Shown here: piece after piece, positions 12,658 through 50,652 of the stretch
Layout of the letters: each line of letters begins with the position of its first letter
Position numbering within the stretch: position 1 is the stretch's first letter
Assembly: GCA_041675285.1 (NCBI GenBank)
Contig: JBAYTZ010000018.1
Coordinates: 7,586-71,585 of the forward strand
Length of the DNA: 64,000 bases
Source: Candidatus Delongbacteria bacterium
Lineage (GTDB): Bacteria > CAIWAD01
Direction: 5' to 3'
Notes under the pieces: model-generated
Told to the model about the DNA's origin: nothing
The model's input: only the letters and a program-made list of their open reading frames with translations
Databases searched by the model: none
Position numbers and translations under genes: made by a program

Positions 12658-12677
12658 GACGCCGGGCGCTGGATGGG

Positions 12678-15070: not shown

Positions 15071-15073
15071 CTC

Positions 15074-16066: not shown

Positions 16067-16236
16067 GCAGTGGTCCCCTTGCTGAATCGGTGCGGTCACG
16101 CGCCGCAGGCAGGGCGCAAAGTAGAGATCGGCGCTGGATCGCCGCAAATCCCCGCGCCCGTCCCTCCCCAGCCCTGCTTTGTTAGGTTGTGCCGCCGAAC
16201 CGAACCCGGCCTGGGCCGGTGAACCACGGGAGAATC

Positions 16237-21999: not shown

Positions 22000-22009
22000 T
22001 TTCTACGTC

Positions 22010-22400
22010 GAGGCCACGTTCACCCCGAAGGGCACGAAGGCCAACAAGGTGCGGGAAGAGGAACGCAGGATTAGAAGAGAAGTGAAGAGAACAAGCTGCC
22101 CACTGGCTTGGACACGAGCGTCGCCCTCCTCACCCTGACGCCCAAACCCATCTCCCAAGAGCTTCGTGCGCTTCGTTCTTCTTCCCGCACTTCGTGGTGG
22201 GCTTGGTTTCTGCGTCGGGGCCACGTTCACCACGAAGGACACAAAGGCGAACGAAGAGCGGGAAGAGGAGTAGGGAAGAAGAGAGGAACCAGCTTCCCAC
22301 TGGCTTGGAATCAAGCCCCGCTCTCACGGACAGTTCTCCCCAATCCATCTTCCAAGTCTTCGTGCGCTTCGTTCTTCTTCCCGCACTTCGTGGTTCATGT
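22010..22400. repeat. two tandem ~196-207-bp units, each bounded by ~17-bp inverted repeats (MITE-like or structured-RNA candidate)
   Basis: The 37-nt block cttcgtgcgcttcgttcttcttcccgcacttcgtggt occurs twice exactly (22162-22198 and 22358-22394). gtgcgggaagaggaacg (22049-22065) is the reverse complement of cgttcttcttcccgcac (22174-22190). The units are about 75% identical overall. Confidence 0.6.
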
Positions 22401-29874: not shown

Positions 29875-29897
29875 GGCCAATTGGAAAGGAAGGACCC

Positions 29898-32765: not shown

Positions 32766-32793
32766 GGGGCCCGGCGGCCAGACCCGGGATGAC

Positions 32794-35153: not shown

Positions 35154-35930
35154 ATGGCCTGGATGGGAAAACTAGTCGGCGGCGGGCTGGGGTGGGCCGT
35201 GTTCGGACCCCTGGGCGCCCTGTTGGGCGGCATCATCGGCAACGCCTTCGACCAGCGTGGCGAGACCCGCGAGATCCCCGAGGACTACTACCGGCACCGG
35301 GGCTGGACGCGCAGCGACCCGCGCTTCAGCGCCAACCCGGCGGGCAACTTCGTGCTGGCCCTGCTGGCGCTCTGCGCCCACGTCATCAAGGCCGACGGCA
35401 CCGTGCGCAGCGCCGAGGTGCAGCAGGTTCGCGACTTCGTCCAGCGCACCTTCCCGCACGACGCGGCCGACCTGATGCAGGTGCTCAAGCAGCTGCTGGA
35501 GCAGCAGGTGGACGTGGGTCCGCTCTGCGCGCAGATCGGCATGCACCTGGGCTATCCCGAACGCCTGGAACTGCTGCAGTTGCTGGTGGCCGTGGCCCGC
35601 GCCGACGGCATCCTCAACCCCGCCGAGACCCGCACCGTGCGCGAGATCGCCCAGCGCCTGGGCATCCGCGAGGCCGACCTGCGCACGCTGTTCGGGGCGG
35701 CGGGTCAAGCCAGCGCGCCGGCCCAGGCCGCGCCGGATCCCTACGAGGTGCTGGGAGTCGCCCGGAGCGCCAGCGACGAAGAACTCAAGAAAGCCTGGCG
35801 CGCGCTGGCCAAGAAGTTCCACCCGGATCGCGTGGCCCACCTGGGCGAGGACCTGCGGCGCTTCTCCGAGGAGAAGTTCAAGTCCATCCAGGGCGCCTGG
35901 GACCAGATCAAGCAGGAGCGCGGCCTCTGA
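35154..35930 (+). CDS. djlA: DjlA-like co-chaperone (TM anchor, TerB-like domain, C-terminal J-domain)
   Basis: TM region [21 protein letters not shown]. TerB-like helical region. C-terminal [32 protein letters not shown] is a J-domain with HPD. Stop overlaps the selB ATG (ATGA). Confidence 0.65.
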
Positions 35931-37858
35931 TGTCCCACATCGTCATCGGCACCGCCGGCCACATCGACCACGGCAAGACCAGCCTGGTGCGCGCCCTGAC
36001 CGGCATGGACACCGACACCCTGCGCGAGGAGCGCGAGCGCCAGATCACCATCGACCTGGGCTTCGCCTTCCTGGGCGAGGACGTGACGATCATCGACGTG
36101 CCGGGGCACGAGCGCTTCATCAAGAACATGGTCAGCGGTGTGGCCACCATCGATTTCGTCCTGCTGGTGGTGGCCGCCGACGACGGAATCATGCCCCAGA
36201 CCCGCGAGCACATGGACATCCTGGGCCTGCTGGGGCTGGAACACGGGCTGGTGGTGATCACCAAGGCCGAGATGGCCGAACCCGACTGGCTGGCCCTGGT
36301 CCAGGACGAGCTGCAGACCTTCCTGCGCGGCACCTTCCTCGAGGACGCGCCCGTGCACGTGGTGGATTCGCTCTCCCTGCGAGGCATCGACGAGCTGCGC
36401 AGCGCGCTGGACGCGGCCCTGCACGCCCTGCCGCCCCGGGAGGGCCGGGGCGCCTTCCGCGAGGTGGTGGACCGCGTCTTCAACGTCAAGGGCCACGGCA
36501 CGGTGCTCACCGGCACGGTGCTGGCGGGCTTCCTGAAGAGCGGCGACGAGGTGGAGATCCAGCCCGGCGGACTGAAGGCCCGGGTGCGCGGTCTGCAGGT
36601 GCACGGCAAGGCCGTGGAGCAGGTCCGCCAGGGCGACCGCGCGGCGCTCAACCTGCAGGGCCTGGCCCGCACGGAGCTGGGCCGCGGCTCCTGGGTGGCG
36701 GCCCCCGGCCTGCTCACACCCACCAGCCTGCTGGACGTGCGCCTGCGCGTGCTGCCCGGCGAGCTCCGCCTCAAACATCGCGACCGCGTGCGCGTGCACC
36801 TGGGCACGGCGGAGTTGATCGGCCGCGTGCTGCTGCTGGGCCGCAAGGCCCTGGAACCCGGCGAGGAGGGCTTCGCCCAGCTGCTGCTGGAGGAGGAGAC
36901 CGCCGCCCTGCTGGGCGACCGCTTCGTGATCCGCCGCTATTCGCCCCAGACCACCATCGGCGGCGGCGTGGTGGCGGATCCCAATCCGCGCCGGCACCGG
37001 CCCTCCGCCGGGCAGGTGGTGGACCGGCTGGAGCGCCTGACCGACGGCAGTTTCGACGAGCAGCTCGAGAGCCTGCTGGACGATCCCTGGCAGCCGCTCT
37101 GGCAGGAGAGCGAGCTGCGCGCCCGCACCGGCGCGGAGCCCGACGAGCTGCGCCCGGAGCTGGAGCGCATGGTCGTCCAGGGGCGCGTGCGGCGCTGCGA
37201 GTGGGGCAGCCGCGTGCACTGGATGCTGAGCACGCGCTGGCAGGAGGCGGGGGAGCGGCTGCTGGAGCGCCTGCGCCGGCTGCACGAGGCCACGCCGGAA
37301 CTGCCCGGGCAGCCTGTGGCCCAGTTGCGGGCGGACCTGTTCTCGCGGCCCGGCTGGCAGGCGCACGCCCAGCCCCTGCTGGACGCGCTGCTGGCGGAAC
37401 TGGGCGGAAAGGGTCTGATCAAACTCGAGAATCGCTGCGCCAGCCTGGCCGGCCACGAGCCGCGCCTCTCGCCCGAGCTGCGTCGACGCACGGATGCCCT
37501 GGTGGACTGGCTGGAGGGCCAGGGCTACGGCGCGCCGCGGCTGGAGGATTTCGCCCAGGCTCTGGCCTGCGGCGTGCCCGAAGTCAAACGCCTGCTGGCC
37601 CTGGCGTTGCAGGAGGGCCGCGTGGAGCAGGCCACTGATCAGATCTTCCTGACCCGCGCGCGGCATCTGGCGGCGCTGGCCGAGCTGCGGGCCCTGGGCC
37701 GCAAGCAGCCCGAGGGCTTCACCGTCAGTCAGGCGGGCGCGCGCTTGAGTGCCAGCCGGCGCTTCATGGTTCCATACCTTGAAGCCCTGGACACCCGGGG
37801 CCTCACCCGGCGCGCCGGTAACTTCCGCAGCGTGGCCGACGGAGCGGGGGACTTGTAG
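35930..37858 (+). CDS. selB: selenocysteine-specific elongation factor SelB
   Basis: G-domain GTAGHIDHGKTSLVRALTG, DVPGHERF, ITKAE. C-terminal winged-helix extension. About 642 aa. Confidence 0.85.
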   Translation: MSHIVIGTAGHIDHGKTSLVRALTGMDTDTLREERERQITIDLGFAFLGEDVTIIDVPGHERFIKNMVSGVATIDFVLLVVAADDGIMPQTREHMDILGLLGLEHGLVVITKAEMAEPDWLALVQDELQTFLRGTFLEDAPVHVVDSLSLRGIDELRSALDAALHALPPREGRGAFREVVDRVFNVKGHGTVLTGTVLAGFLKSGDEVEIQPGGLKARVRGLQVHGKAVEQVRQGDRAALNLQGLARTELGRGSWVAAPGLLTPTSLLDVRLRVLPGELRLKHRDRVRVHLGTAELIGRVLLLGRKALEPGEEGFAQLLLEEETAALLGDRFVIRRYSPQTTIGGGVVADPNPRRHRPSAGQVVDRLERLTDGSFDEQLESLLDDPWQPLWQESELRARTGAEPDELRPELERMVVQGRVRRCEWGSRVHWMLSTRWQEAGERLLERLRRLHEATPELPGQPVAQLRADLFSRPGWQAHAQPLLDALLAELGGKGLIKLENRCASLAGHEPRLSPELRRRTDALVDWLEGQGYGAPRLEDFAQALACGVPEVKRLLALALQEGRVEQATDQIFLTRARHLAALAELRALGRKQPEGFTVSQAGARLSASRRFMVPYLEALDTRGLTRRAGNFRSVADGAGDL

Positions 37859-38156
37859 AACGGGCTCAATTCCAGCCCCGCAGATGCAGATAATGAGGGG
37901 GATCGCCGGAATCGGGAGTCTGTCGGACTTGGCCACTTGGCGGGCTTCATCGCCCCACCCGGCCCGGATTTTTCGGAGCTTTCTTGCACATACCCCCAGT
38001 ATGCGCTGCGAAATTTCCGAAGAGCCGGCCTCGACTGGAGCACGCGCGCCTGCGGCGCGAATCCCATCCAAGGTCCAAGCCCGACAGACTCCCAGGGGGA
38101 ATCAGCTTTGCCGGACCTGCGCCAGCCCAAATCGGGAGGCGGGTCCGGCGCGGCGC

Positions 38157-41100
38157 ATGTCCGGCGGGCAGAGCAAGGGAGACTTCGTGAGCGGCACAGG
38201 GCGGGTGATCATCGGGCTGGGGCTGGCCTGCGGGCTGGCCGGGACGGCCCACGGCCTCGTCACCGGCGTCACGCCGGCCCCGGGCTCGCGCTTAAGCCCC
38301 GGCCAGTACATCACGCTGGAATTCAGCCCTTCCATGACCCAGGCGGAGCTCAACCGCCTGGACGACCTGATCGAAATCCGCGACGAGCGGCGCGGCCGCA
38401 TGTACTGGTTCGCCGCGGGCGTGGGCAACGCGCCCTACCAGCGGGTGGTCCTGATCCCCGACGAGAACTGGGTTCCGGGCGGCGCCATCCGGCTGGAGAT
38501 GATGACCGACCCCACCATCCCGGGCGCCACGCTCCAGGCCGCCCACTTCCGCTGGCCCTTCCTCTGCGACAGCTGCGAGTGGCTGGGCGTTCGTCCCTCC
38601 TGGTCCCTGCAGCTACAGGGCGCGGCCAGCGAGGCGCTGGACGTCCTGCCATTGGACCTGGACCGCAACCGGCTGAACGACCTGGTGGTGGCGCGCCGCG
38701 AGCAGATGGTCTTCTTCCGCGTGGACACCTGCGCCTCCACGCCGCAGATCTCCGGACTGGGCGGCATGGCGCTGCCGGACTTCTCGTTGCAACGCGAGCT
38801 GCGTTCCTTAAGCCTGGGCACCAGCGCCGTGGGCGAGCTGCACCCGGGCGAGGGCCTGCTGATGCACACGGGCGGCCAGGACGAGGGCCTGCGCGTGCTG
38901 GCCCGCACCGGGCCGGACAATTCACCCGTCTTCACCCAGCTCCTGCTGGAGGACGGCACCTTCGCCGGCTCGCCGCTGCTGGCCGAGCCCATCCGTCTGG
39001 TGGGCGACCATCTCTGCCAGGATCTGCTGGTGGGCACGCGCGGCGGCGACCTGGTGCTCTTTCCCGCCGACGCGACCTGCTCGCAGATCGAGCCCGACTC
39101 CACGCGCGTCCTGTTCAGCGGCCTGGGCCAGCCCCTGGACCTGCTGGTAATCCAGGGCACGCGGCTGGCCCCCGGGGCCTTCGAGGACTTCGTGCTGGTG
39201 CTGGACGCCGCGCCGGAGCCGCTGCACTGCCTGGTCTGGAACGGCAGCACGCTCGATGAAGTCTGGACGGCGCCGCCGGATCTGGTGCAGAACCTGGAGC
39301 GCCTGGAGGCCTGGAGCGACGGCGATCCCGCCGGCCTGCCCGACCTGATCGCCTGGAACGGCGACGGCCGCGTGGTGGTGGTCTCCAACATCGATCCACA
39401 GACTCAGCAGGCGGAGATCACGGCCTGGGATTTCCCGGAGCCGCTGCGCGACGTGGAGTCGCTGCCCGACGGCCGCGTGGTCTTCGCCGGCTTCTCCACC
39501 GTGCGCTTTACTTTCGATCCCCGCACGGGCCTGACGGACACGCTCTACGCCGACCTGCCCGACGTGCCGCGCCGCCTGCGCGCCATCGACATCAACAGCG
39601 ACGGCGACCACGACCTGCTGGTGCTCTTCCAGGACGGCCGCCTGCTGGCCCACCTGGACGAGCCCGTCGGGGCGGACCGCCTGGACCTGCCCGCGTCCCT
39701 GGCCTGGAGCCGCGTGGCGGTGGGGGACACGCTGCGCGTGCCGCTCACGCTGCGCCACCGCGGGCTGGCCGGCCTGATGCGCCTGGACGTCTCGCCGCCG
39801 CCGGCGGATCCGGACTTCCCCTTCTCCTGGGACGACGTGGCGCCCCGGGACCTGGCGCCGGGCGACAGCCTGGTGCTGGAGCTGCGCGCGCACCCTGCCG
39901 TGGCGCTGGACAGCTGCTGGACCAGCGGCCAGTTCAACGTCTGGTGGAGTTTCCCGGGCTGCGTGGGCCAGAGCGGCCAGGCCGTCCTCGACCTCTGCTT
40001 GCAGGCGGGCCTGGCCACACCGCAGTTCGCGCTGGACAGCCTGGAGCTGGGCTCCGACTGCGGCGGGCACGCCCAGTGCGAGGAGAGCTGTCCCACCGGC
40101 GGGGTCTGGCTGCGCAACGGGGGCGAGGCCGATCTGCTGGTGCGCGACGCCTTCCTGGCCTCCCATCCCGACGACAGCCTGAGCGTGCCGGAGAGCTTCT
40201 GCCTGTTGGAGTGGCCCCAGGCCGCGCTGGCCCCGGGCGACAGCGCCCAGCTGCGGCTCTCCTTCTGCCCGCCCATGGACGGACCCTGGCCCTGGCGCCA
40301 GGGCGCCCTGCTAACCCTGCGCACCAACGCCGCGGGCGCGGACAGCCTGCTGCAGCTGCCCGTGCTGGGCCTGCTCACCTGTCCCTGGCCGCCCCGCTTC
40401 ACGGCGGACCTGCCGGAGATGCCGGAGGACCTGGCCGCCTGGCTGGATCTGGCGCCGCTGATCGAGGATCCCGATAACACGCTCTCGGAACTGAGCTTCA
40501 CCCTGCACGGCCTGACCGGCACGGGCAACCAGCCGGCGGACAGCCTCATGCGGCTGGACGAGCTGGACGGCCTGCGCCTGCACGTGACGCCGGGCCTGAA
40601 CGTCAATAGCGCCCTCCACCCGCAGCTGGGGCTGGACCTGGAGCTGGCCGACCCGTCTGGCAACCACACGCGTGACACACTGCTCTTCGTGATCCGGCCG
40701 GTGGACGACGCGCCCTTCTTCCTGGGCGGGCCGGACTCGCTGCTCACGGTGCGCGAGGGCCGCACCCTGCGGCTGGACTTCCAGTGGGGCGAGGTGGACG
40801 GCGACCCGCTGCTGAACGCCTTCACGCTCTACCGCGACGCGGCCCACCAGGAGCTGGTGGAGAGCACGCCTTTCAGCGGGAACGGCAGCTGGCGCTACGA
40901 GCGGGCCATCGCGCCGGGAGACTCCGCCTTGTTCAACGGTCAACTCTTTTGGGACGCGCGGCTGGCGGACCAGGTCGGGGAGCAGGGCTTCACGGCCGTG
41001 CTGGCCGGCCGCCTGCGCTTCACCAGCCGCCGGGACACGCTCAGCCTGACCGAGGACCGCGAACTGGTGTTGGACCTGGCGGACTGGCTGCTCAGCCCGG

Positions 41101-42266
41101 GCGAGGATCCGGCGGGCATGCAGTCCGAGCTGCTGGGCGTGTTCGGCACCGGGGAGCTGGCGCCGGACGAGGTGCTGGAAGTGGAGGCCCTGGACGGCCT
41201 GCTTTTCCGACTGAGCCCCGCACCGGACGTCAACCTGCGCCAAGTGCCGGGCCTGAGTCTGCTCTTCCAACTGCAGGAGGAGGGCCAGGCCGCCCGCCGT
41301 GACACATTGCGCGTGGCCATCCAGCCCGTGGAGGACGACCCGCGCCTGCTGCTGGCGCCCGCGGAGGGCACGGACCTGCCCGAGGGCGTGGAGACCCTGC
41401 TCAGCTGGGAAGTGGCGGAAGTGGACGGCGATGGGCTGGCGGGCGAGCTCCTGCTCAGCCACCATCCACTCTTCGCCGACACCCTGGCCCTGTTGCCGTT
41501 GGCCGGCGCGACCCGCCGCCTGGATCTGGCCTATCGGCCGGAGGTGGGCGACTCCCTTCGCCTGGGTGGCCGAGTGCACTGGCGCCTGGACGTGTCCGAC
41601 CTGCCGCCGGGCAGCGGCTCTCTGCACGTGCAGCGCGGGCTGGACGTCCTGCAGTCGCCCCAGCAACTTCAGCTCAACCTGCGGGCCGCGCCGCCCGCCG
41701 AAGCCCACTGGGGCGACACGCTCTCCCTGCCGGTGCGGATCTTCTCCGCCAGCGGCTATGTGGGCAGCCTGGTGCTGCGGCTGGAGCAGGACCTGCAAGA
41801 GGCCGCGCGACTGGACTGGCCCTGGCTGGACCTGGGCGCCGCGGCCACGTTGGACACCAGCCTGACCCTGGTGATGCCCCTGGACGGGACGCAGAGCTGC
41901 TGGACCCTGCGCCTCTTGCCCGGCAATCCCGCCGAGGACGAGGCCGACAATCAGCTGTCGGACTGCGTCCAGCTGACCCGCGAGCCCCTGGGTCCGGAGC
42001 AGCGGGCCTTCTCGCCCAATGGCGACGGCGTCAACGACGAGCTGCGCTTCGTGTTCAGCGCGCGGCCCGCGGCGCGCCATTACCGGGTCGAGATCTTCGA
42101 CGCCGGCGGCCGGCGGGTGGCGGCCCACAGCCTGGGCGCCGCCGAACACGCCTGGAACTGGGACGGGCGCCTGGCGGGCCGCGATCTGCTGCCCGGCGTC
42201 TACGCCTGGGTGATGCTGGACGGCGAGCACGTGCTGGCCCGCGGCCAGCTGGGGGTGGTGCGATGA
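38157..42266 (+). CDS. giant secreted adhesin-like protein with FG-GAP-type repeats and a T9SS type-B C-terminal domain
   Basis: Signal peptide. Repeated DxDxNxLNDLVV / IDINSDGDHDLLV (FG-GAP/VCBS-like). C-terminus FSPNGDGVNDELRF...WNWDGRLAGRDLLPGVYAWVMLDGE...LGVVR matches the gliding-motility CTD (type B). About 1369 aa. Confidence 0.6.
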   Translation: MSGGQSKGDFVSGTGRVIIGLGLACGLAGTAHGLVTGVTPAPGSRLSPGQYITLEFSPSMTQAELNRLDDLIEIRDERRGRMYWFAAGVGNAPYQRVVLIPDENWVPGGAIRLEMMTDPTIPGATLQAAHFRWPFLCDSCEWLGVRPSWSLQLQGAASEALDVLPLDLDRNRLNDLVVARREQMVFFRVDTCASTPQISGLGGMALPDFSLQRELRSLSLGTSAVGELHPGEGLLMHTGGQDEGLRVLARTGPDNSPVFTQLLLEDGTFAGSPLLAEPIRLVGDHLCQDLLVGTRGGDLVLFPADATCSQIEPDSTRVLFSGLGQPLDLLVIQGTRLAPGAFEDFVLVLDAAPEPLHCLVWNGSTLDEVWTAPPDLVQNLERLEAWSDGDPAGLPDLIAWNGDGRVVVVSNIDPQTQQAEITAWDFPEPLRDVESLPDGRVVFAGFSTVRFTFDPRTGLTDTLYADLPDVPRRLRAIDINSDGDHDLLVLFQDGRLLAHLDEPVGADRLDLPASLAWSRVAVGDTLRVPLTLRHRGLAGLMRLDVSPPPADPDFPFSWDDVAPRDLAPGDSLVLELRAHPAVALDSCWTSGQFNVWWSFPGCVGQSGQAVLDLCLQAGLATPQFALDSLELGSDCGGHAQCEESCPTGGVWLRNGGEADLLVRDAFLASHPDDSLSVPESFCLLEWPQAALAPGDSAQLRLSFCPPMDGPWPWRQGALLTLRTNAAGADSLLQLPVLGLLTCPWPPRFTADLPEMPEDLAAWLDLAPLIEDPDNTLSELSFTLHGLTGTGNQPADSLMRLDELDGLRLHVTPGLNVNSALHPQLGLDLELADPSGNHTRDTLLFVIRPVDDAPFFLGGPDSLLTVREGRTLRLDFQWGEVDGDPLLNAFTLYRDAAHQELVESTPFSGNGSWRYERAIAPGDSALFNGQLFWDARLADQVGEQGFTAVLAGRLRFTSRRDTLSLTEDRELVLDLADWLLSPGEDPAGMQSELLGVFGTGELAPDEVLEVEALDGLLFRLSPAPDVNLRQVPGLSLLFQLQEEGQAARRDTLRVAIQPVEDDPRLLLAPAEGTDLPEGVETLLSWEVAEVDGDGLAGELLLSHHPLFADTLALLPLAGATRRLDLAYRPEVGDSLRLGGRVHWRLDVSDLPPGSGSLHVQRGLDVLQSPQQLQLNLRAAPPAEAHWGDTLSLPVRIFSASGYVGSLVLRLEQDLQEAARLDWPWLDLGAAATLDTSLTLVMPLDGTQSCWTLRLLPGNPAEDEADNQLSDCVQLTREPLGPEQRAFSPNGDGVNDELRFVFSARPAARHYRVEIFDAGGRRVAAHSLGAAEHAWNWDGRLAGRDLLPGVYAWVMLDGEHVLARGQLGVVR

Positions 42267-43981
42267 AAACCCGACTCACCCGGCTGGCGCTGGTTCTCAC
42301 CATCGGTCTGGCGGCCCGCGCGGAAATGACCTTCACCGGTAACCCGGCCCTGCTGGGGCGGACGGACGCCATGCGGATCAATCCGGCCCTGGCGGCCTGG
42401 CGTCCGCTGGCCTTCTCGGCGGACTGGCAGCTGCTCAACGCGGGACTGGCGGGCGGCGCCGCGGCCATCGGCCAGGGCGGCTTCCAGCTGGCTGTGCCGC
42501 GGGTCAACCTGGTGCTACTGGGCGACCTGCGTGACACAGACCTGCTCAGCGAGAACGAGCTCAGCCTGGACTGGGCCGTGCGGCTGCGCAGCAACCTCTC
42601 GCTGGGCCTGGAGGCCGGCGTGCGGCGCTTCGGCTGGAACCGCGAGCGCCTGGGCGCCGACGCGCTGCAGGATCCCGTCTTCCGCGACGGCCTGGACCGT
42701 CTGCAGCCCCTGCTGGGCGCCGGGCTGTTCTGGGCGCCGCGCACGGACCTCTACGTGGGCTTGGGTCTCAAGCGCCTCAACCGGCCCAGCCTCTCCCTGG
42801 TCTCGTCGGCCCCCAAGGCCCCCGTGCGGGGCTACCTCGGCCTGGCCTGGCAGAGTCCCAGCTTGAGCCTGGGCCTGACCGTGGACAACCTGGCCAACCA
42901 GACCGTGGGCGGCGGCGCGCTGCAGGATCTGGGGAGCGAACAACGACCCAGTCTGCAGGCCGAATGGCGAGCAATGGAGACCCTCTCCGTCTACGGCGAC
43001 CTGCGCCAGGACGGGCTGGCGCTGGAGTTCGCCACCCAGCCGCTGCCGGACCACGAGCTGGCCTATCGCTGGACCGTGCCGCTGGGAGACCTGGCGGAGC
43101 GCTCTGACGGCAGCCACCGGCTGGAGTGGACCTACAGCCTGGGCGGCGCGCTGATTCCCGGCGGACCCTGGCGCGGCCAGCCCGCCCTGTTGCCCGGCGA
43201 CGAACCCCGCGAGGGCGCCCCCTGGCTGGAGGCGCTGCGGCGTCGCTGGCGGCCGGAGCGCGCGCCCCTGCTGCTGCGCAGCCCCGTGCCGCAGCTGGAG
43301 GTGGTGGAACTGCACGTGCACGTGGAGCCCGCGCTGCTGGAGCGCCTGGCCCAGGCGGGGGCGGATCCCGCGGCCCTGGCGGCCTCCGGCCTGACCTTGA
43401 ACCCCGGCAAGGCCCTGACTCCGGACCAGTCCGGCGTGGTGAACGGCACCTGGTCAGCGGCCTGGTGGCAGCTCTCGGGCTGGCTGGAGACGCTGGCCTG
43501 GGACGAGGGCGTGCGGCCCGTGATCCACGTGGGCGACCGGGTGGAGCGGCTGGACGACCTGGCCAATCTCCTGGGGGCCGAACTGGAGGAGCAGCCGCTG
43601 CCCCGGCTGCCCGAGAATGGACGTCTCACGCTGCCCGACACGCTGGCCCTGGGGCTGGAGCTGCCCGAAGAGCTGGCCCGGCTGGCGCGCTCGTGGCGGC
43701 TGGAGGCCGAGCTCCCTGGCCAGGCGCGCGTGGTGCGCGAGGGTCGGGACGCTCCGCCCCGCCGGCTGCAGCTGGCGCTGGATCCCGGCACGCTGGAGCC
43801 CGGCGAGGCCCGGCTGCACGTCACGGTGGCCGACAGTCGCGGACGCCTGCTGGCGGACCGCACCCTCGTGCTGCCCGTCCAGCTCCGCGTGAGACACGTG
43901 CACTTGAGTGAGCAGGCACCGGGAGCGGCGCTCCCGGCGGGCGTGGACCGCATCCACATCCATCTGGACGAACATGAATAG
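42263..43981 (+). CDS. PorP/SprF-family T9SS membrane protein with a ~290-aa C-terminal extension
   Basis: Signal peptide, then ...MRINPALAAW..., and an alternating beta-strand N-terminal half of about 280 aa. It is the standard neighbour of type-B CTD proteins. ATG overlaps the upstream stop. Confidence 0.5.
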   Translation: MKTRLTRLALVLTIGLAARAEMTFTGNPALLGRTDAMRINPALAAWRPLAFSADWQLLNAGLAGGAAAIGQGGFQLAVPRVNLVLLGDLRDTDLLSENELSLDWAVRLRSNLSLGLEAGVRRFGWNRERLGADALQDPVFRDGLDRLQPLLGAGLFWAPRTDLYVGLGLKRLNRPSLSLVSSAPKAPVRGYLGLAWQSPSLSLGLTVDNLANQTVGGGALQDLGSEQRPSLQAEWRAMETLSVYGDLRQDGLALEFATQPLPDHELAYRWTVPLGDLAERSDGSHRLEWTYSLGGALIPGGPWRGQPALLPGDEPREGAPWLEALRRRWRPERAPLLLRSPVPQLEVVELHVHVEPALLERLAQAGADPAALAASGLTLNPGKALTPDQSGVVNGTWSAAWWQLSGWLETLAWDEGVRPVIHVGDRVERLDDLANLLGAELEEQPLPRLPENGRLTLPDTLALGLELPEELARLARSWRLEAELPGQARVVREGRDAPPRRLQLALDPGTLEPGEARLHVTVADSRGRLLADRTLVLPVQLRVRHVHLSEQAPGAALPAGVDRIHIHLDEHE

Positions 43982-44012
43982 CGCAGTCCCAACGCAGACG
44001 AGGTCCCTGACC

Positions 44013-44744
44013 ATGCAGCAGCGAATCCGCGCCTTCCGGGCGCCCCATGCGGCGATCATCCTGACGCTGTGTTCCGTCCTGCCGGCGCTTGCCGCGGAGG
44101 GCGGGGCCGGCGACGCCGCCACCCTGCCCGTGCTGGAGATCCTGGCCATGGGCGGCTGGATCATGTGGCCCATCTACCTGACGCTGGCCGCGGGCGTAGC
44201 CCTCAGCATCTCGCGCTTCCTGATGATCCGCCTGGACCAGTCGCGCGAGAACGCCTTGCAGGACTGGAAACCCCGCGGCCGCAGCGCCGACGACGCCCTG
44301 AAGGCCATCCAGGGCATGGAGACGGGCAGCCTGTCTCAGGCGGCCGTGGACATGCTCACCCAGTTCCGCGCCACGCGCAACCCGGAGTCCATGAGCGCGC
44401 AGATCGAGCGCCACCTCACCGTGCGCCAGGACTGGTTCAAGCCCTATCAGAACTGGCTGAACTTCCTGTCCGAGAGCGCCGGCGCGCTGGGCCTGTTGGG
44501 AACCGTGCTGGGCATGTTCCAGACCTTTTTCGGCGGCACGCTGGACAAGGACAAGGTGCTCCACGGCATGGGCCTGGCGCTGATCACCACCCTGGTGGGC
44601 CTGGTGGTCAGCCTGATCCTCAACTTCGTGCTGACCCTGGTACGCAACCATTTCGACAAGAGTCTGGACCGGCAATACCAGAAGCTCACCGAGATCCGGC
44701 AGGCCATGCTGGAGGCGGGGGCCCTGGATTCCCAGCGGTCGTAG
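44013..44744 (+). CDS. exbB: MotA/TolQ/ExbB proton-channel protein
   Basis: Three TM helices. ...ESAGALGLLGTVLGMFQTF...GMGLALITTLVGLVVS is the ExbB/TolQ core. Confidence 0.75.
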   Translation: MQQRIRAFRAPHAAIILTLCSVLPALAAEGGAGDAATLPVLEILAMGGWIMWPIYLTLAAGVALSISRFLMIRLDQSRENALQDWKPRGRSADDALKAIQGMETGSLSQAAVDMLTQFRATRNPESMSAQIERHLTVRQDWFKPYQNWLNFLSESAGALGLLGTVLGMFQTFFGGTLDKDKVLHGMGLALITTLVGLVVSLILNFVLTLVRNHFDKSLDRQYQKLTEIRQAMLEAGALDSQRS

Positions 44745-44756
44745 GAGCCTGAACCC

Positions 44757-45137
44757 GTGCTGCGACTCATCGACATCGTGCTGATCCTGCTGTTCGGCTT
44801 CATCTCGATCAGCCACTTCGACAGCTCGGTCTCCGTGCAACTGCCCGAGGCCGGCCACATGCCCCGGCTGCAGGCCGAGTTCCAGAACCTGGCCGTGGTC
44901 AGCCTGAACGAGGCCGGGGCATTCGTCTGCGGCCCCGAGCGGCACCAGGTGGCCGACGCGACCGAGCTGCGCGACTGGCTGGCGGGCGAGCAGGCCGCCG
45001 GAGCCACCCAGGTGCGCCTGCGCGCCGACCGCGGCCGGCCGTCCTCGGAAGTGGCCCTGCTGCAGGAATTGTGCGGCGAGCTGGATCTGGGCCTGAGCCT
45101 GGAGATCATCCGCCGCGCCGAGGAGATTCGTCCGTGA
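44757..45137 (+). CDS. exbD: ExbD/TolR biopolymer transport protein (copy 1)
   Basis: N-terminal LRLIDIVLILLFGFISI TM helix and a ~125-aa fold. GTG start, GTAGGAG SD. Confidence 0.7.
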   Translation: MLRLIDIVLILLFGFISISHFDSSVSVQLPEAGHMPRLQAEFQNLAVVSLNEAGAFVCGPERHQVADATELRDWLAGEQAAGATQVRLRADRGRPSSEVALLQELCGELDLGLSLEIIRRAEEIRP

Positions 45138-45589
45138 CACTGATGCGCGGCTACATCACACGCCTGATCGACGTGACCCTGATCATCCTGATCGGCTTCC
45201 TCTCGGTGGCCGACCTGGATGACCGCGCCGTGCTGCCGCTGCCCGCGGGGCTGGCCGCCGTGCTGGACACGCTGGCCCGGGACGAGGCGCAACGCCGGCT
45301 GGAGATCACGGCCACGGAGGCCGGGAGCTTCCTGCTGGAGCTGTCCAGCACCACGGGCCTGAATCTGCCCCTGGGGCGCGTCAGCGGCGCCGACACCCTG
45401 CGCGCCGTGCTGACCCGACTGAAGTCCGAGCACCAGTTGGCCGGGGCGGACGTCCGCTCCTGGCCGCGCGTGCCGCTGCAGACCGCCGTGGACGCCGTGG
45501 ACGCCTGCGACCTGTGCGAGATCCCGCGCGACGTGCGCTTCCTGCCGGAGACGGGCGCGCCGGCCGCCGGGGCGGAGGCGCGGCCATGA
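45134..45589 (+). CDS. exbD: ExbD/TolR biopolymer transport protein (copy 2)
   Basis: YITRLIDVTLIILIGFLSV TM helix. GTG start overlaps the upstream stop (GTGA). Confidence 0.7.
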   Translation: MTLMRGYITRLIDVTLIILIGFLSVADLDDRAVLPLPAGLAAVLDTLARDEAQRRLEITATEAGSFLLELSSTTGLNLPLGRVSGADTLRAVLTRLKSEHQLAGADVRSWPRVPLQTAVDAVDACDLCEIPRDVRFLPETGAPAAGAEARP

Positions 45590-46452
45590 CAACCCTGGAT
45601 CTGCGCGAGCGCCAGTACCGGCTGATCGGCTGGTCCACCAGCCTGCTGGTGATGGCCCTGCTCTGGCTGCTGCTGGCCCAGCTCTCGGTGGATCGGCCCC
45701 GTCAGGGTCCGGCGCCCACCGAGGTGATGCTGAACTGGGTGCGCACCATCGTGCCCACGCCCGTGCGCGACCGGCTGCTCAAGGCGCGGGTGCGCGAGCG
45801 GACGGTGCGCCAAATCGGCCGCAGCGCTCCCCGGCCACTGTCGGTGCCGGACCGCGCGGCCCTGCGAAGCGCACCCCGGGATCCGGGCGCGCTGACGGCG
45901 GTGCCCGAGCGGCAGGGGCGCGGACTGCCCGACCTGCCCGCCCGCGGCGGCGCCCGTCCGGTCATGCCCGGCCGTGGACGACTGTTGGACGGCGGCGATG
46001 AGGTGGGCGGCTCGGGACTGAACCGCGGATCCGCAAACATGAATCTGCGCACGGAGCCGCTGGCCCGGCGTGGCGGAGGCGCCGGGGCGGGTTCGGCGCG
46101 CGGTCCGCGGGGCGAGCTGCTCTCCCTGCCGCCCCAGGAGCTGGACCCCGTGCTGGCGCGCTTCATGGGCGTGACGGCCGCCAGCCTGCCCGGCGGCACG
46201 CTCAATCTGGGCGGTCAGCCCTGGCTGGTCTGGGTGTCCGAGCAGGGCGGCCTGCTGCGCGTGCTGCTGCGGCGCGGCGACGAGTTGCGGCTATTGGTGC
46301 TGGCGGGCGCGGACCTGCAGGCCCAGTCCTTCCAGCGCGGCGAGGTCTCCCGCGCCCGGGGCGGACTGGTGGTGCAGTCCCAGCGCAGCGGGGCGGGCGA
46401 GGCCGCGGGCCTGCGCGAGGATTTGCTCAAGGCATTGGAGGATCTGGAATGA
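45586..46452 (+). CDS. membrane-anchored periplasmic protein in the TonB position; no recognisable TonB C-terminal domain
   Basis: Single N-terminal TM helix, a Pro/Arg/Gly-rich linker, and a C-terminal ~110 aa unlike TonB_C. ATGA overlaps on both sides. Confidence 0.4.
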   Translation: MTTLDLRERQYRLIGWSTSLLVMALLWLLLAQLSVDRPRQGPAPTEVMLNWVRTIVPTPVRDRLLKARVRERTVRQIGRSAPRPLSVPDRAALRSAPRDPGALTAVPERQGRGLPDLPARGGARPVMPGRGRLLDGGDEVGGSGLNRGSANMNLRTEPLARRGGGAGAGSARGPRGELLSLPPQELDPVLARFMGVTAASLPGGTLNLGGQPWLVWVSEQGGLLRVLLRRGDELRLLVLAGADLQAQSFQRGEVSRARGGLVVQSQRSGAGEAAGLREDLLKALEDLE

Positions 46453-47954
46453 ACGGTGCCGGTCGCGGGGTCCGCTGGAGTCTCCCGGCTTCCGCCCTGC
46501 TCCTCATGCTGCTGGCGCTGCCGGGAGCGACCTGGGCGCAGGAGTCGGGCGCGGCCGTGACACGCCGCGTGGATCAGATCCTGGAGGAGGGCAAGGGCCA
46601 GGTGCCCCGCGTGAGCGCCAAGCGGCGCGCGGAGGCCCGGGCCCGCCTGAACGAGGCCGCCGAGCTGCGGAAGCGCACCCAGGACCAAGCCTGGGTGGTC
46701 TGGCGGCTGGACTCGCTGCGCCGCGCGGGCGCGACGGACTCCACGGCCTGGTACGACCTCTACGACAAGGCGCTGCGCCAGATGCAGAGCACGCTCAGCC
46801 TGACCAACAACAAGTACCCGGGCGACATGTCGGCGCGCGAGCTGGGCGCCGTCAAGGAGAGCCTGCGCCGTCAAGCCGCGGAGGGCTACCGCAAGTCCCT
46901 GGGCCTGCTGGAGGACGCGCTGCGGGCCAACCCCTGGGACGACTCCGTCCTGGCGGCCATTGGCGGCGTGCTGGAGGATCTGGCGCGTCTCTACACCAGC
47001 CTGAACTTCCGCGACCGGGCCATCGAGCTGACCCAGAAGCGCCTGGCCCTGGACGCCTCCAACTACTACGCCCACTGGGATCTGGCGGACCTGCTGCGCG
47101 CCGCCGGCCGCGGTCCGGCCGCGCTGGAGCGCTACCAGAAGGCCTGCCGCGCGCTGCGGGCCTTTGCCTTTGAGGACGAGGGCGGCAGCGAGGAGCGCCC
47201 GGTGGGACGGCGGCGCCAGGACCTGGTGCTCCTTCTGCGCGAGCGGGTCTCGCTGGCCATGGAACAGCAGAACGAGGCCGAGTTCCGCCAGGCCATGGGC
47301 GAGTGGGAGCCCCTGGCGGACGCGTCCGACCAGAAGGAGCTGACCCAGCTCAAGCGCTGGCTGCAACGCGGCGGCGGGCGGCTGGGCCAGGCTCTGCGCA
47401 TCGACAAGGCCTGGAAACTCATCGAGCAGGGCCGCGAGATCGAGGCCCGCGAACTGCTCCAGCAGGCGGTGGCGGAGAGCGCCGACCCGCAGGAGAAGAC
47501 CCGCAACCTGCTGGCCCTGGGCGAGCTGGAATTCGACCAGCTGGGCATGAAGGAGGCGGGGCTGGAGCGCGTGCGCGGCCTCTTGACCGAGGGCGTGCGG
47601 GACGACAGCCTGCGCGTGGAGGCCCTGGACACCCGGGGTCGGATGACCCTATCCTTGGCGGCCGAGCTGGAAGAGGAGGATCCCCAGCGCGCCTGGGCCC
47701 TGCTTGAGGAGAGTCTGGCCGCGCCGGGACGCTGGGAGACGGCGCTCTGCCTGCGGCTGGCCGGCCTGCTGCTCAACCGGCCCGAGGCCGCGCTGCCCTG
47801 GCTGCAGCGCGCCGAGGCCGCCTGCTCGCGCGGACCCTGCGACGGCGCGGATCGCGCCGAGCTCTACCAGTTGCAGGCCGACGTGTATCGGCGGCTGGGC
47901 CGCGCCGAGGAGGCGCGCGCGGCGCTGAAGAAGGCCGGCGGAGGCACGCCATGA
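46449..47954 (+). CDS. secreted TPR-like repeat protein
   Basis: Signal peptide and repeated helical-hairpin segments. Lies in the conserved slot after exbB-exbD-exbD-tonB. Confidence 0.45.
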   Translation: MNGAGRGVRWSLPASALLLMLLALPGATWAQESGAAVTRRVDQILEEGKGQVPRVSAKRRAEARARLNEAAELRKRTQDQAWVVWRLDSLRRAGATDSTAWYDLYDKALRQMQSTLSLTNNKYPGDMSARELGAVKESLRRQAAEGYRKSLGLLEDALRANPWDDSVLAAIGGVLEDLARLYTSLNFRDRAIELTQKRLALDASNYYAHWDLADLLRAAGRGPAALERYQKACRALRAFAFEDEGGSEERPVGRRRQDLVLLLRERVSLAMEQQNEAEFRQAMGEWEPLADASDQKELTQLKRWLQRGGGRLGQALRIDKAWKLIEQGREIEARELLQQAVAESADPQEKTRNLLALGELEFDQLGMKEAGLERVRGLLTEGVRDDSLRVEALDTRGRMTLSLAAELEEEDPQRAWALLEESLAAPGRWETALCLRLAGLLLNRPEAALPWLQRAEAACSRGPCDGADRAELYQLQADVYRRLGRAEEARAALKKAGGGTP

Positions 47955-48649
47955 GCCGCCCGCTCTGGACTTTGGCGGCGCTGGGCGCCCTGCTGCCTGC
48001 CACGGGCGGCTCCGCTCCCGGCGACGGGCAGGCCGGCAGCGGACCCCGGGTGGAGGCGCAGATGGTGCTGCGTGCCCGGGTGGAGGATCCCGTGCTGATC
48101 GAGCGCCTGCTCAGCCAGCAGCTGCTGGGCCTGGACGCGCGCGCCGCGGAGGCCGTGGAACTGGTGGACCTGGGCGGCGATGGTTTCGGCGAGGGCGACC
48201 TGCTGCGCCTGCTGCCCGGCGGACAGGGCCATCTGCTGCGCCCCCTGGATCGCGAGCTGCGCGAGACCCTGGCCGGCTGGTCCTTCGCCGCGCACCACGA
48301 GATCCACGCCCCGGCCGACGTGCAGCCGGAGGAGCTGCGCCAGCTGGCTCAGCCCACCGCCGTCCTGCTGGCCGACCTGCTCGGGGCCACCCGGCGCAAT
48401 CTGGGCATCTCACGCTTCGAGCTGGCCCTGGACGTGCGCGAGGACGGTCTGCTGATGCGGGTCTGGGACTATCCGGGCGACAGCCTGTTCGCGCGCCCGG
48501 GCGGCGCGGGCGGACGGCGCGTGCTGGACGTGGTGCAGATCGTGCGCGAGGACACGACCTACGTGGTGGACAAGGTGCTGCGCGACCTGTTGATCCTGGA
48601 GAGCCAGGTGGTGGACACGCTGTACCTGCGCAAGCCGGACCGTCCATGA
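47951..48649 (+). CDS. hypothetical exported protein
   Basis: Hydrophobic N-terminus. Translationally coupled on both sides. No recognisable motif. Confidence 0.3.
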   Translation: MSRPLWTLAALGALLPATGGSAPGDGQAGSGPRVEAQMVLRARVEDPVLIERLLSQQLLGLDARAAEAVELVDLGGDGFGEGDLLRLLPGGQGHLLRPLDRELRETLAGWSFAAHHEIHAPADVQPEELRQLAQPTAVLLADLLGATRRNLGISRFELALDVREDGLLMRVWDYPGDSLFARPGGAGGRRVLDVVQIVREDTTYVVDKVLRDLLILESQVVDTLYLRKPDRP

Positions 48650-50652
48650 ACCTGCGTGCGGGCCTACCCGCGACCTTGGCGGCCTGGCTGCTGGGGGTCT
48701 GCGTCGCCCGGGGAGCGGAGCCGTCGTGGTCCGTCACCCTGCTGGGCTGCGACAGCCTGCGCCTGAGCGGGCGCGCCGCGGGCTGGGACTGGCTGGAGGC
48801 GGAAACGCCGGCCGGATTCCTGGAGCTGGGAGCGGTGGGAGCGGACGGGGCCGTGGACCTGCAGCTGGGCGCGCCGCCGCGCGGCGGGTCGCTGGTGCTG
48901 CGCCCGGCCCGGCTGGACTCGCTGGGTCTGCCGGACTACGGGGACGAGTGGATCTGGAACCGCGCCCTGCCCCGGTTGGAGGCCCGGCTAGAAGGCCGCC
49001 GGCTGGTGGGGCGCGTCCAGCAGGACGGCCGGGACGGGTGTCCCCTGCCCGACCTGATCCTGCGCCTGGAGCACGGCGGCCAGCTCACCGATCTCCAGCG
49101 GCTGCCCGCCGGCAGCTCGTTCGAACTCGATCTCGCCGGCCGCGCCTTCAGCGCGCTGACCCTGGACTGGGGCGGCCTGGGCAAGCCCCTGCGCCTGGCC
49201 GGTCCCGACCAACCCGCCGCCCCTGCCCTGGCCGGTCCGGTCGAGGACGCGGCCCCGGCCGCGCCGGAGTGGGCGGGTTTCGCGGGCGAGGCGCTGGAAC
49301 TGCTCAGCCCCTGGCCGCTGGTGCTGCTGCAGGGCACGGCGACGCTGGAGAATGCCGGCGCCGGACGCTGGCGCGTGACGGCAACCGGGACGGATGAATT
49401 GCTGGTGGCCGCCCGGGACGATGAGGGACGGACCTCGTTGCCCTTCCGCTGGGAGAGCGGCGCGGCGGCCCTGCGGCTGGACGTGCGCCGCACGGGACCC
49501 GGCAGTCTGCAGATCAGCGCACGCGACGCCGTCGTGCCGCCGGAACTCGAACTGGTCTGGCTGGACGGCCAGGGCCGCCAGGGGCGCGCTCCGCTGCCCG
49601 CCGCCGGCCTCACCCTGGAAGGTCTGGCCGGTGTCTGTCGCCTGCAGGCCCTCGGGCCGCAGGGTCCGCTCTGGAAGCAGAGCCTGGATCTGAGCTGGCC
49701 CGCGCCGGGCGGCCTGCGCCTCAGCTCGGCCAGCGACACGCTGCTGACGGCCACGCTGGAGGACGAGCGCGGCTGGAGCGGGCTCTGGGAGCTGGAGTGG
49801 CGCGCCGCGGGCGTCGTCACCCGCCGACCCCCGGCCGCCGCGCACGCCTTCGCCCTGCCGGCGACGGAGCGCCTGCACCTGCGCTGGCGGGCCGGCAGTC
49901 CGCCCAGCCAGAGCCGCTGGTCGGCTTGGCGGGAGATCTCCCTTACGCCCGAACCGCCCGCCGCCGTGGACGTCCGCCCCGCGCCCGGCGGCCTGGAACT
50001 GAACTGGGAGCCGCGCGAGTGGCTGGCCGGCCAGCTGGAGATCGAGCGCGTGCTGGGCGCGGACACCCTGCGCTGGCGGGTGCCCGAGGCGCCGGGAAGC
50101 TGGCTGGACCCGCTGCCCGGCGACCGGTTGGCCCGCTACCGGCTGCGCAGCCGGCTGACCCGCCACCAGAGCGACTGGACCACCGTCTGGGGCGCCCGCC
50201 CGCTGGAGGATCTCCCGGCCGGAACCCTGGCGCGGCGCAGCGTGAGCGTGGCGGAAGTGCGGGCCTTCTCGCGTGAGACCGGGACGGCCCTGCCCGCCGC
50301 CGTCGAGTGGGTGGAAGGCCGGGCCGCGCGGCCCGCCGACGATCAGCCCGCCCTGGGACTGAGCCCGCGGGAAGCGCTGCGGTACTGCAATTGGTTGAAT
50401 GCGCGACTGGGCCTGGACGGCCGCTATGATGAGTCTGCGGCGTGGCAGGCTGGCACGAAGGGTGGCTATCGCCTGCCCGGCACACCGGCGGAAGCAACCG
50501 GGGCGGGGCGGGTCTGGCTGGCGGGCGCGGAAGGCGTGCGGGCCGCCGGCTCCTCGGGGCTGCGCAGCGGCTCCAGCCGCCGACCTTACAGCCTGGACGC
50601 GCGCCAGCCCGACGTGGGGCTCTGCCTGATCTGGAGTCCGCCCGCCCGCTGA
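48646..50652 (+). CDS. exported protein with a degenerate C-terminal FGE-sulfatase (SUMF1 / GldJ-GldK-like) domain
   Basis: Signal peptide. C-terminal VSVAEVRAFSRETG...LSPREALRYCNWLNARLG follows the pattern V..EF.AF...TGy...VSW.DA.AYC.W.g.RL of the FGE fold. Confidence 0.4.
   Translation: MNLRAGLPATLAAWLLGVCVARGAEPSWSVTLLGCDSLRLSGRAAGWDWLEAETPAGFLELGAVGADGAVDLQLGAPPRGGSLVLRPARLDSLGLPDYGDEWIWNRALPRLEARLEGRRLVGRVQQDGRDGCPLPDLILRLEHGGQLTDLQRLPAGSSFELDLAGRAFSALTLDWGGLGKPLRLAGPDQPAAPALAGPVEDAAPAAPEWAGFAGEALELLSPWPLVLLQGTATLENAGAGRWRVTATGTDELLVAARDDEGRTSLPFRWESGAAALRLDVRRTGPGSLQISARDAVVPPELELVWLDGQGRQGRAPLPAAGLTLEGLAGVCRLQALGPQGPLWKQSLDLSWPAPGGLRLSSASDTLLTATLEDERGWSGLWELEWRAAGVVTRRPPAAAHAFALPATERLHLRWRAGSPPSQSRWSAWREISLTPEPPAAVDVRPAPGGLELNWEPREWLAGQLEIERVLGADTLRWRVPEAPGSWLDPLPGDRLARYRLRSRLTRHQSDWTTVWGARPLEDLPAGTLARRSVSVAEVRAFSRETGTALPAAVEWVEGRAARPADDQPALGLSPREALRYCNWLNARLGLDGRYDESAAWQAGTKGGYRLPGTPAEATGAGRVWLAGAEGVRAAGSSGLRSGSSRRPYSLDARQPDVGLCLIWSPPAR

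Follow-up and report, generated by a model that had tools for sequence, protein, structure and literature searches.

Non-catalytic domains related to formylglycine-generating enzyme (FGE), and their structural use in type IX secretion system (T9SS) proteins, are already known, and such folds were recently shown to serve as docking hubs of the Bacteroidota T9SS ring and gliding track (PMC12421860). PorK is a lipoprotein with an FGE-like fold that has no catalytic cysteines, and GldK and GldJ share this fold; in PorK, the first ('horizontal') helix carries a large insertion (InsH, R81–P230) that mediates polymerisation, a smaller one (InsV) follows the second helix, and PorN is docked via the former substrate groove (PMC12421860). 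SprF and PorG are disulfide-bonded to GldK Cys343 via cysteines of their periplasmic tails (PMC12635249), and the catalytic residues of FGE itself have been defined in the Streptomyces coelicolor enzyme as Cys272/Cys277 (PMC4505483). Here we describe a protein of 668 amino acids (aa) encoded on a 64,000-nucleotide (nt) stretch of a Candidatus Delongbacteria genome (contig JBAYTZ010000018.1, positions 7,586 to 71,585 of the forward strand; hereafter the window), whose gene is the last of a nine-gene envelope operon. It is virtually certain that the C-terminal ~140 residues of this exported protein are a genuine derivative of the FGE-sulfatase (FGE-type C-type-lectin-like) fold.

The original prediction placed a degenerate FGE domain at the tail of the protein and named a PF03781 or profile-profile comparison as the check. 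Searched alone, the 668-aa protein matched Pfam PF03781 at E 0.022 (14.9 bits; residues 529–598 on profile positions 40–122 of 255), below the gathering score of 23.3 bits, and a similar match was found in 7 of 8 family members; because these matches are sub-threshold, single-sequence scores alone would leave the claim unproven. Profiles were built from alignments A1 and A2 (8 proteins, 51–100% identity; A2 being the C-terminal profile) and from A3 and A5, which add the distant orthologues P0009, P0010, P0015 and P0019 (26–36% identity, with similar length and architecture) found by an exhaustive HMMER search; the fragment P0014 was included in A5 only, and A6 is an alignment of six canonical FGE domains. 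A word-indexed homologue search with the wider A3 returned the same 8 close homologues and nothing further. Among 1.84 billion representative proteins, the A2 profile retrieved 323 at E ≤ 1e-3, and five of the matches that were checked proved to be strong PF03781 proteins (Pfam E 1e-78 to 1e-132): P0012, P0013, P0017 and P0018 at A2 E-values of 1.1e-17 to 3.3e-14 (Pfam E 1e-82 to 1e-132), and P0038 at 2.6e-8. The hhalign comparison of A5 with A6 gave a probability of 99.2% and E 9.6e-20 over 72 columns. When A5 was run against all PDB sequences, every match ranked down to E 0.7 was an FGE-fold protein: ToxD came first (2.6e-6) and human FGE second (4e-3), followed by PvdO, TvpA, EgtB-IV, CalU17, T. 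curvata FGE, pFGE and OvoA. Two orthologues, P0019 (38.9 bits, E 1e-9) and P0014 (25.0 bits), pass the PF03781 threshold by themselves; since P0019 is a low-GC protein that does so alone, composition is not the cause of the resemblance. These results bear out the predicted domain through the A2 search, the hhalign probability and the PDB ranking, with significant similarity to FGE proteins at profile E-values of 1e-17 to 1e-14. The gene and the parts of its product, all on the + strand, are as follows:

48646–50652, + strand: gene for the 668-aa exported protein, last of the operon (open reading frame list and translation; stop codon 50650–50652).
48646–48714, + strand: predicted type I signal peptide, about residues 1–23 (read from the sequence and alignment A1).
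48724–50196, + strand: stalk of about 5–6 beta-sandwich (FN3/Ig-like) domains, residues 27–517 (AlphaFold2 model m0db3d02884c7, Foldseek).
50224–50649, + strand: miniaturised, very probably non-catalytic FGE-sulfatase-like domain, residues ~527–668 (profile searches, hhalign, AlphaFold2 domain model).
50248–50280, + strand: FGE helix 1, VAEVRAFSRET, residues 535–545 (AlphaFold2; aligns to the FGE helix T.aqy..F..aTG).
50365–50406, + strand: FGE helix 2, PREALRYCNWLNAR, residues 574–587, the best-conserved FGE signature (AlphaFold2, A5 against PDB, hhalign).
50407–50493, + strand: post-helix insertion LGLDGRYDESAAWQAGTKGGY, then RLPGTPAEA (residues 609–616), a degenerate RLPTEAEWE motif (alignment A5).
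50494–50649, + strand: compressed C-half, residues 617–668 (alignment A5, bridged by P0015, P0019 and P0014).

The domain is unusually small, at ~140 aa against 225–255 in canonical FGE, or ~60% of the usual size. In the hhalign comparison the N-half alone aligned to canonical FGE (query positions 13–107 to template positions 34–105 of 227), and no complete domain with both halves (~225–255 positions) was found; deletions of 28–45 aa are seen in A5 even relative to the protein's own distant orthologues. The motifs that had first drawn attention to the region lie at residues 533–546 and 572–589. The likeness to FGE (SUMF1; 1Y1E, 2Q17, 6MUJ) comprises helix 1, helix 2 (S/W-x-x-A-x-x-Y-C-x-W), the RLPTEAEWE remnant and a C-terminal R..Y...AR....G(F/L) skeleton, with S573 and W583 invariant in all orthologues. 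An insertion of ~19 residues follows helix 2 and recurs in the canonical FGE-like proteins P0013, P0038 and P0127, and P0019 keeps GYRLPTAAEYEE (RLPTAAEYEE) where the window protein has GYRLPGTPAEA. A competing register, taken from the HMMER alignments to ToxD and A6, placed GRYDESAAWQAGTKGG on the RLPTEAEWEYAARGG motif; it was rejected because P0019 carries the canonical GYRLPTAAEYEE at GYRLPGTPAEA and because P0013, P0038 and P0127 share the ~19-aa insertion. Only ~57 residues remain beyond RLP (residues 609–611), and ~52 beyond RLPGTPAEA, where a canonical domain has ~120.

The predicted structure is compatible with this picture. A Foldseek search with the full-length AlphaFold2 model was swamped by FN3/Ig chains and silent on the tail, and residues 512–668 were modelled separately (pLDDT, the predicted local confidence score, 79; pTM, the predicted template-modelling score, 0.78). 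The domain model contains the two FGE helices and then a few short strands. Its top 7 Foldseek matches were all FGE-fold proteins (ToxD, PvdO, EgtB-IV, 5aoh, SenA and OvoA), at E-values of 0.1–4, none of them significant; the query TM-score (TMq) was 0.50 for ToxD and PvdO and 0.19–0.50 across the top 7. The predicted fold is consistent with FGE, and falls short of decisive. By both profile and Foldseek the nearest solved relatives are PvdO (5HHA), which is periplasmic, and ToxD (7SPQ), neither of which has the FGE Cys pair. Both are full-length FGE domains of ~260–320 aa that act in small-molecule biosynthesis, whereas the window domain, which is joined to an FN3-like stalk, is without ~40% of the fold.

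The shrinkage falls mostly on the half that holds the active site in FGE. With P0015, P0019 and P0014 as bridges, whose loops are 28–45 residues longer and which retain NVREW, G(A/N)SW and D(V/A)GFR motifs, the C-half of the window protein can be matched segment by segment to canonical FGE: RVWLAG to GNVWEW, AGSSGLR to RGGSW, RRPYSLDAR to NRYRVAAR, and DVGLCL to NLGFRC. In the window subfamily the three bridging motifs have turned into RVWLAG, AGSSGLR and DVGLCL. The active-site pair (Cys336/Cys341 in human FGE, Cys272/Cys277 in S. coelicolor) follows the RGGS motif, and in the alignment the catalytic C-HDSY-C segment of S. coelicolor FGE comes directly after RGGSY. No such pair was found in the window protein, and the equivalent stretch, GSSGLRSGSSRRPYSLDAR (AGSSGLRSGSSRRPYSLDAR), contains no Cys in any close homologue. 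The GNVWEW motif, which we take to mark a structural Ca2+ site, as in human FGE, is degenerate, reading G(A)GRVWLAG in the window protein, and the distant orthologues keep NVREW. The erosion of the catalytic Cys context noted in the original prediction is real and goes further than first described, with no Cys pair at all and a C-half cut to 52 residues; the accompanying claim of eroded Ca-binding residues holds for the degenerate motif, and its connection with the Ca site is a presumption on our part. Compared with FGE, the domain lacks the catalytic Cys pair, has a degenerate GNVWEW motif and has lost the substrate-groove loops. It is very probably non-catalytic. Because the Cys pair and most of the loop region have been lost, a non-enzymatic binding or structural role is the sensible reading.

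Erosion of the FGE features has not been accompanied by relaxed conservation. Among orthologues of 51–87% identity, residues 617–668 are the most conserved segment of the protein, with 42% invariant columns against 25–33% elsewhere. The orthologues at 26–36% identity retain the architecture, and in P0009 and P0010 the N-half is eroded further while the C-half motif is kept. As read from these alignments, the conservation shows that the domain is under purifying selection; since its C-half is the most conserved part and is kept in P0009 and P0010, the domain, degenerate as an FGE, is a selected and functional module.

The original prediction also likened the domain to the non-enzymatic use of the fold in GldJ, GldK and PorK. 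The first part of this comparison stands, in that the domain is an FGE relative without the catalytic Cys pair; membership of the GldJ/GldK/PorK family does not. The GldK (TIGR03525) and GldJ (TIGR03524) models gave no match to the window protein, including with the isolated domain searched to E ≤ 10, and P0019 matched the GldK model at E 2e-4 with 20.7 bits against a cut-off of 350. A5 did not reach PorK (9OTS, 9MZU) in PDB at E ≤ 1, whereas the canonical FGE profile found PorK there at 1e-38, which places PorK in the library; the P0019 domain scored PorK (E 0.8) no better than human FGE (E 0.5). PorK was also missing from the Foldseek matches of the domain model, though it is in the library. 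No InsH-type insertion was found, the gap between helix 1 (535–545) and helix 2 (574–587) being 28 residues. GldL, GldM and GldN were not found in the operon, whose products match MotA_ExbB, ExbD, TPR, PorP_SprF and CHU_C only. The 668-aa protein is not a GldJ/GldK/PorK orthologue, and we reject that membership.

What the two systems have in common is a Cys-less FGE-like fold as a periplasmic docking surface in FCB-group bacteria (docking being a proposal in the present case), together with a genomic or functional tie to type-B cargo, PorP/SprF-type carriers and a proton-powered motor. In the lipoproteins PorK, GldK and GldJ a full-size FGE fold, enlarged by InsH, InsV and the B-loop, makes up the entire body, whereas the window domain is a ~140-aa C-terminal appendage with deletions, set behind ~500 aa of beta-sandwich in a protein with no lipobox and encoded beside a Cys-free carrier. 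PorK, GldK and GldJ partner PorN/GldN and the GldLM/PorLM motor; the window operon has ExbB/ExbD instead. An analogy of function is possible, in which an FGE-like module would do the docking for an envelope machine tied to the T9SS.

Ahead of the domain, the protein begins with MNLRAGLPATLAAWLLGVCVARG followed by AEP, that is, a basic residue, a hydrophobic stretch and an ARG/AEP junction. This N-terminus reads as a type I signal peptide, and the same pattern is seen among the homologues; the full-length AlphaFold2 model places a helix of low pLDDT at residues 7–19. Neither a lipobox nor any Cys is conserved in the signal region among the A1 homologues: the window protein has LLGVC, with V at −1, and an LLGC-type motif near the signal region occurs in P0004 only. 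Cys35 was considered as the lipoprotein Cys of an LLGC motif and rejected, as it follows charged residues and lies outside, after the hydrophobic region (P0003 has PLGC and P0008 VQGC at this place). Cys35 and Cys132 are invariant in all orthologues. The Pfam scan found no T9SS C-terminal sorting domain on the protein. In the full-length model (m0db3d02884c7, pLDDT 73) the stalk is all-beta, with FN3/Ig chains as top Foldseek matches (E 1e-13 to 1e-8) and a disordered Pro/Ala linker at residues 189–202. The product is 100% identical to the NCBI entry 'MAG: hypothetical protein WC326_14435 [Candidatus Delongbacteria bacterium]' (MAG, metagenome-assembled genome), which carries no precomputed Pfam domain.

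The open reading frame starts with an ATG that overlaps the TGA of the upstream frame as ATGA (CCATGAAC), and a convergent His_Phos_1 gene ends 3 nt from the frame's own TGA; because of this proximity the frame closes the + strand operon. The overlap upstream and the convergent gene downstream confirm the predicted placement of an exported 668-aa protein at the operon's end, where no terminator or promoter consensus was found. The operon comprises nine + strand genes from ~37.8 to 50.65 kb, mostly joined by 4-nt start/stop overlaps. The eight genes upstream of the 668-aa gene are:

37749–42266, + strand: gene 1, large protein, putatively at the surface, whose C-terminal sorting domain is of T9SS type B (CHU_C E 4e-6, residues 1420–1489; TIGR04131 E 5e-4).
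42263–43981, + strand: gene 2, 572-aa PorP/SprF-like outer-membrane carrier (PF11751 E 2e-4; TIGR03519 E 9e-7).
43908–44744, + strand: gene 3, MotA/TolQ/ExbB-family proton channel (PF01618 E 8e-15), start uncertain.
44757–45137, + strand: gene 4, ExbD/TolR-family protein (PF02472 E 1.4e-5; TIGR02801 TolR E 8e-6).
45143–45589, + strand: gene 5, second, divergent ExbD-like protein (PF02472 E 0.033 in the window and 2e-4 in the L004 orthologue).
45586–46452, + strand: gene 6, membrane-anchored protein of TonB/TolA-like architecture (sequence; alignment A8 with the L001 and L004 orthologues).
46449–47954, + strand: gene 7, exported TPR protein of 501 aa (TPR_12 E 1.5e-7; 2e-14 in the L004 orthologue).
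47951–48649, + strand: gene 8, exported 232-aa protein of no known family (alignment A7).

The longest frame of gene 1 is 1505 aa, with the true start probably downstream of 37858, and the protein is conserved in the related loci L001, L003 and L004. The L004 orthologue of the carrier passes the Pfam cut-off (23.2 bits). Beyond the PorP_SprF profile the carrier has a C-terminal extension of ~270 aa whose length is conserved in L001, L003 and L004, and its translation (42263–43981) contains zero cysteines. Bacteroidota SprF relies on a Cys-x-Cys motif in its C-tail, and the window carrier is without any Cys. Because it has none, a disulfide of the SprF–GldK type cannot operate here. The longest frame of gene 5 runs from 45071, with a likely start at 45134–45143. 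The gene 6 protein has a membrane anchor at its N-terminus and a linker that is extremely rich in Arg, Gly and Pro and looks disordered, and it ends in a small conserved domain; it has no Pfam or NCBIfam match and no detectable TonB or TolA homology. Conservation of the gene 8 protein is strong, its GFGEGD and DTTY.VD...DLLILES.VVDT motifs being invariant, and it matched nothing in Pfam, NCBIfam or PDB.

This gene order is conserved across Delongbacteria. Equivalent nine-gene arrangements with the same convergent His_Phos_1, AmiA-like and Peptidase_M1 flank were found in L001/L002, L003 and L004, where the orthologue of the 668-aa protein is 52% identical in L001/L002 and ~27–29% identical in L004, a locus of the complete Candidatus Delongbacteria chromosome OY760505.1. 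Orthologues of gene 8 lie at 9300–10004 in L001, 9214–9909 in L004 and 9051–9887 in L003. L003 is contig CAZMSD010000015.1, from a metagenome-assembled genome labelled 'uncultured Bacteroidaceae bacterium'; it holds the complete operon and is high in GC, and we suspect that the Bacteroidaceae label of this bin is mistaken. A metagenome scan with the 232-aa profile gave three short contigs only. The most distant of them, L031, encodes a 29%-identical relative of the 232-aa protein adjoining a TPR lipoprotein gene; no 668-like gene was recognisable in the 720 nt after this pair, which leaves the contig uninformative.

The operon resembles Ton/Tol-Pal systems (ExbB-ExbD-TonB; TolQ-TolR-TolA-TolB-Pal-CpoB) in its MotA/ExbB-family channel, its ExbD/TolR-family proteins, a membrane-anchored long-linker protein and a periplasmic TPR protein (cf. 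CpoB). It differs from them in having two ExbD paralogues and no recognisable TonB C-terminal domain, TolB propeller or Pal, and in beginning with a T9SS cargo and carrier and ending with an FN3 plus mini-FGE protein. Two further window proteins carry type-A T9SS C-terminal sorting domains (Por_Secre_tail), at 24956–26593 (+ strand, E 3.5e-11) and 28695–30659 (+ strand, E 1.5e-4), so the organism has and uses a T9SS.

Taken as a whole, the data are probably best explained by a reduced, Cys-less FGE derivative carried on a periplasmic stalk and serving as a docking module of a Ton/Tol-like operon; for the docking role within this operon's machine taken by itself, we regard the case as evenly poised. 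Since it has a type I signal peptide and is without lipid anchor or T9SS sorting domain, the 668-aa protein most likely stays in the periplasm. Its gene is translationally coupled to the eight before it, which supply the type-B surface protein, the carrier, an ExbB/ExbD/ExbD motor, the TonB/TolA-like anchor, the TPR protein and the small 232-aa protein. The mini-FGE domain would most likely offer a docking surface for a protein or ligand, in the manner of PorK, PvdO and other Cys-less FGE-like domains that use the former substrate groove, and would link the Ton/Tol-like energising module to an outer-membrane or cell-wall partner. The conserved C-terminal 52 residues may be the working interface, and candidate partners are the 270-aa extension at the carrier's C-terminus, the TPR and 232-aa proteins, or a glycan. 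Several points weigh against this explanation. The structural match taken alone, at Foldseek E ≥ 0.1, is not statistically significant, and in the full-length model residues 636–668 have a pLDDT below 50. The docking partner remains a list of candidates, a small-molecule or glycan ligand being as compatible with the data as a protein, and the periplasmic location is deduced from a lack of sorting signals that can be recognised. It could also be that the operon is an envelope system of general Ton/Tol type and that the T9SS cargo ahead of it has no relation to it.

The FGE fold belongs to the C-type-lectin-like class, and the domain could instead be a lectin-like anchor that binds a glycan (peptidoglycan, lipopolysaccharide core or exopolysaccharide) and tethers the Ton/Tol-like module to the wall. 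We hold this to be unlikely, although it would suit a protein with no recognisable anchor of its own, a stalk-plus-terminal-binding-domain architecture and a convergent AmiA-like amidase gene as a conserved neighbour. We know of no documented glycan-binding FGE-type domain, the GNVWEW motif has degenerated to GRVWLA, and the amidase gene, being on the other strand, may be unrelated. More improbable is a divergent T9SS track or hub of the GldJ/GldK/PorK type, which would form polymers beneath the outer membrane and bear the carrier and its adhesin, with ExbBD in place of GldLM. Such a role is suggested by the FGE-like fold without catalytic cysteines, as in PorK, GldK and GldJ (PMC12421860), by the operon shared with a type-B cargo and a PorP/SprF-like carrier, by the organism's type-A T9SS cargo, and by the weak GldK match of the distant orthologue P0019 (E 2e-4). 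It is opposed by the lack of a conserved lipobox, by the failure of the GldK and GldJ models on the window protein (with P0019 at 20.7 bits against 350), and by the behaviour of PorK, missed by A5 at E ≤ 1 and by Foldseek while a generic FGE profile reaches it at 1e-38. The domain is moreover shortened, with no InsH expansion; the operon has no GldN/PorN-like or GldL/M genes, and the Cys-free carrier leaves no room for the SprF–GldK type of disulfide (PMC12635249).

An active enzyme of the SUMF1/EgtB/PvdO family, oxidatively modifying a periplasmic substrate, would fit the homology to that family and the nearness of ToxD, PvdO and SenA among solved structures. It is nevertheless very improbable: the position of S. 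coelicolor FGE Cys272/277 (PMC4505483) has no Cys pair, ~90–100 groove and loop residues are deleted, the DinB-like iron domain present in EgtB, OvoA and SenA is missing, and A5 shows no conserved His or Cys cluster. TvpA (2y3c) of T. denticola is among the A5 PDB matches, which raised the thought of a diversity-generating retroelement target with an FGE-type CLec variable domain; in such targets it is the C-terminus of the FGE-type CLec fold that holds the variable region (PMC5758913). This idea is effectively refuted, as no template/variable repeat pair was found in 36–64 kb (chance matches of 67–75% identity only), no reverse transcriptase is encoded in the operon, and the C-terminal 52 residues are the most conserved rather than hypervariable. 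Chance or compositional resemblance in an Ala/Arg/Gly-rich, high-GC protein is likewise refuted: the sub-threshold single-sequence Pfam score (E 0.022) and Foldseek E-values of at least 0.1 would be in keeping with it, but the A2 profile reached verified PF03781 proteins at E 1e-17 among 1.84 billion proteins, hhalign gave 99.2%, the low-GC P0019 matched PF03781 at 1e-9, and all PDB matches below E 0.7 were of the FGE fold.

If the reduced, Cys-less domain does act as a docking module, a more ambitious extension can be sketched, which we put forward as speculative and unlikely. The operon would be a self-contained, Delongbacteria-specific counterpart of the Bacteroidota gliding/T9SS energy chain, with ExbB/ExbD standing in for GldLM, the TonB-like anchor and the TPR protein transmitting force across the periplasm, and the FN3-stalked mini-FGE protein docking the carrier via the latter's 270-aa Cys-free periplasmic extension in a GldK/GldJ-like role, so that the machine moves, tensions or releases the type-B adhesin.

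Elsewhere in the window, selenocysteine machinery lies directly upstream of the operon at 32680–34272 (+ strand) and 35192–37858 (+ strand), namely SelA (PF03841, E 2e-120) and SelB (GTP_EFTU plus SelB winged-helix domains); no tRNA-Sec, other tRNA (ARAGORN) or tmRNA was found in the whole window. The segments at ~4000–17500 and 22000–24000 have a G+C content of 58–68% against ~72–75% around them. The stretch at 4–17.5 kb is a polysaccharide or O-antigen cluster, with several GT4 glycosyltransferases, a Wzy_C O-antigen ligase-like protein and an NAD-dependent epimerase, and the low-G+C block may have been horizontally acquired. At 18496–21999 (+ strand) a 1167-aa protein has DUF4175 (E 6e-8) as its sole match.

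What is new here is a lineage-specific, unannotated family that escapes the curated thresholds of Pfam and NCBIfam, an FGE fold in unusually reduced form, and the fusion of this mini-FGE to an FN3-like stalk in a conserved operon that links an ExbBD-type motor with a type-B cargo and its carrier. The family shows how far the FGE fold can shrink and still be conserved, to ~140 aa with the active-site half reduced to a 52-residue stub, and it brings mini-FGE, type-B cargo, carrier and ExbBD-type motor together in one operon of a little-studied FCB-group phylum. If the functional analogy with the Bacteroidota docking hubs is true, it would represent a second, simpler way to couple a proton motor to outer-membrane carriers and would bear on the evolution of the T9SS/gliding energy chain; were the operon indeed a counterpart of that chain, the FGE fold would have been recruited independently or very early to connect a proton motor with an outer-membrane carrier. 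If the analogy is false, a 'hypothetical protein' family still gains a domain assignment, and a conserved Delongbacteria envelope operon is defined.

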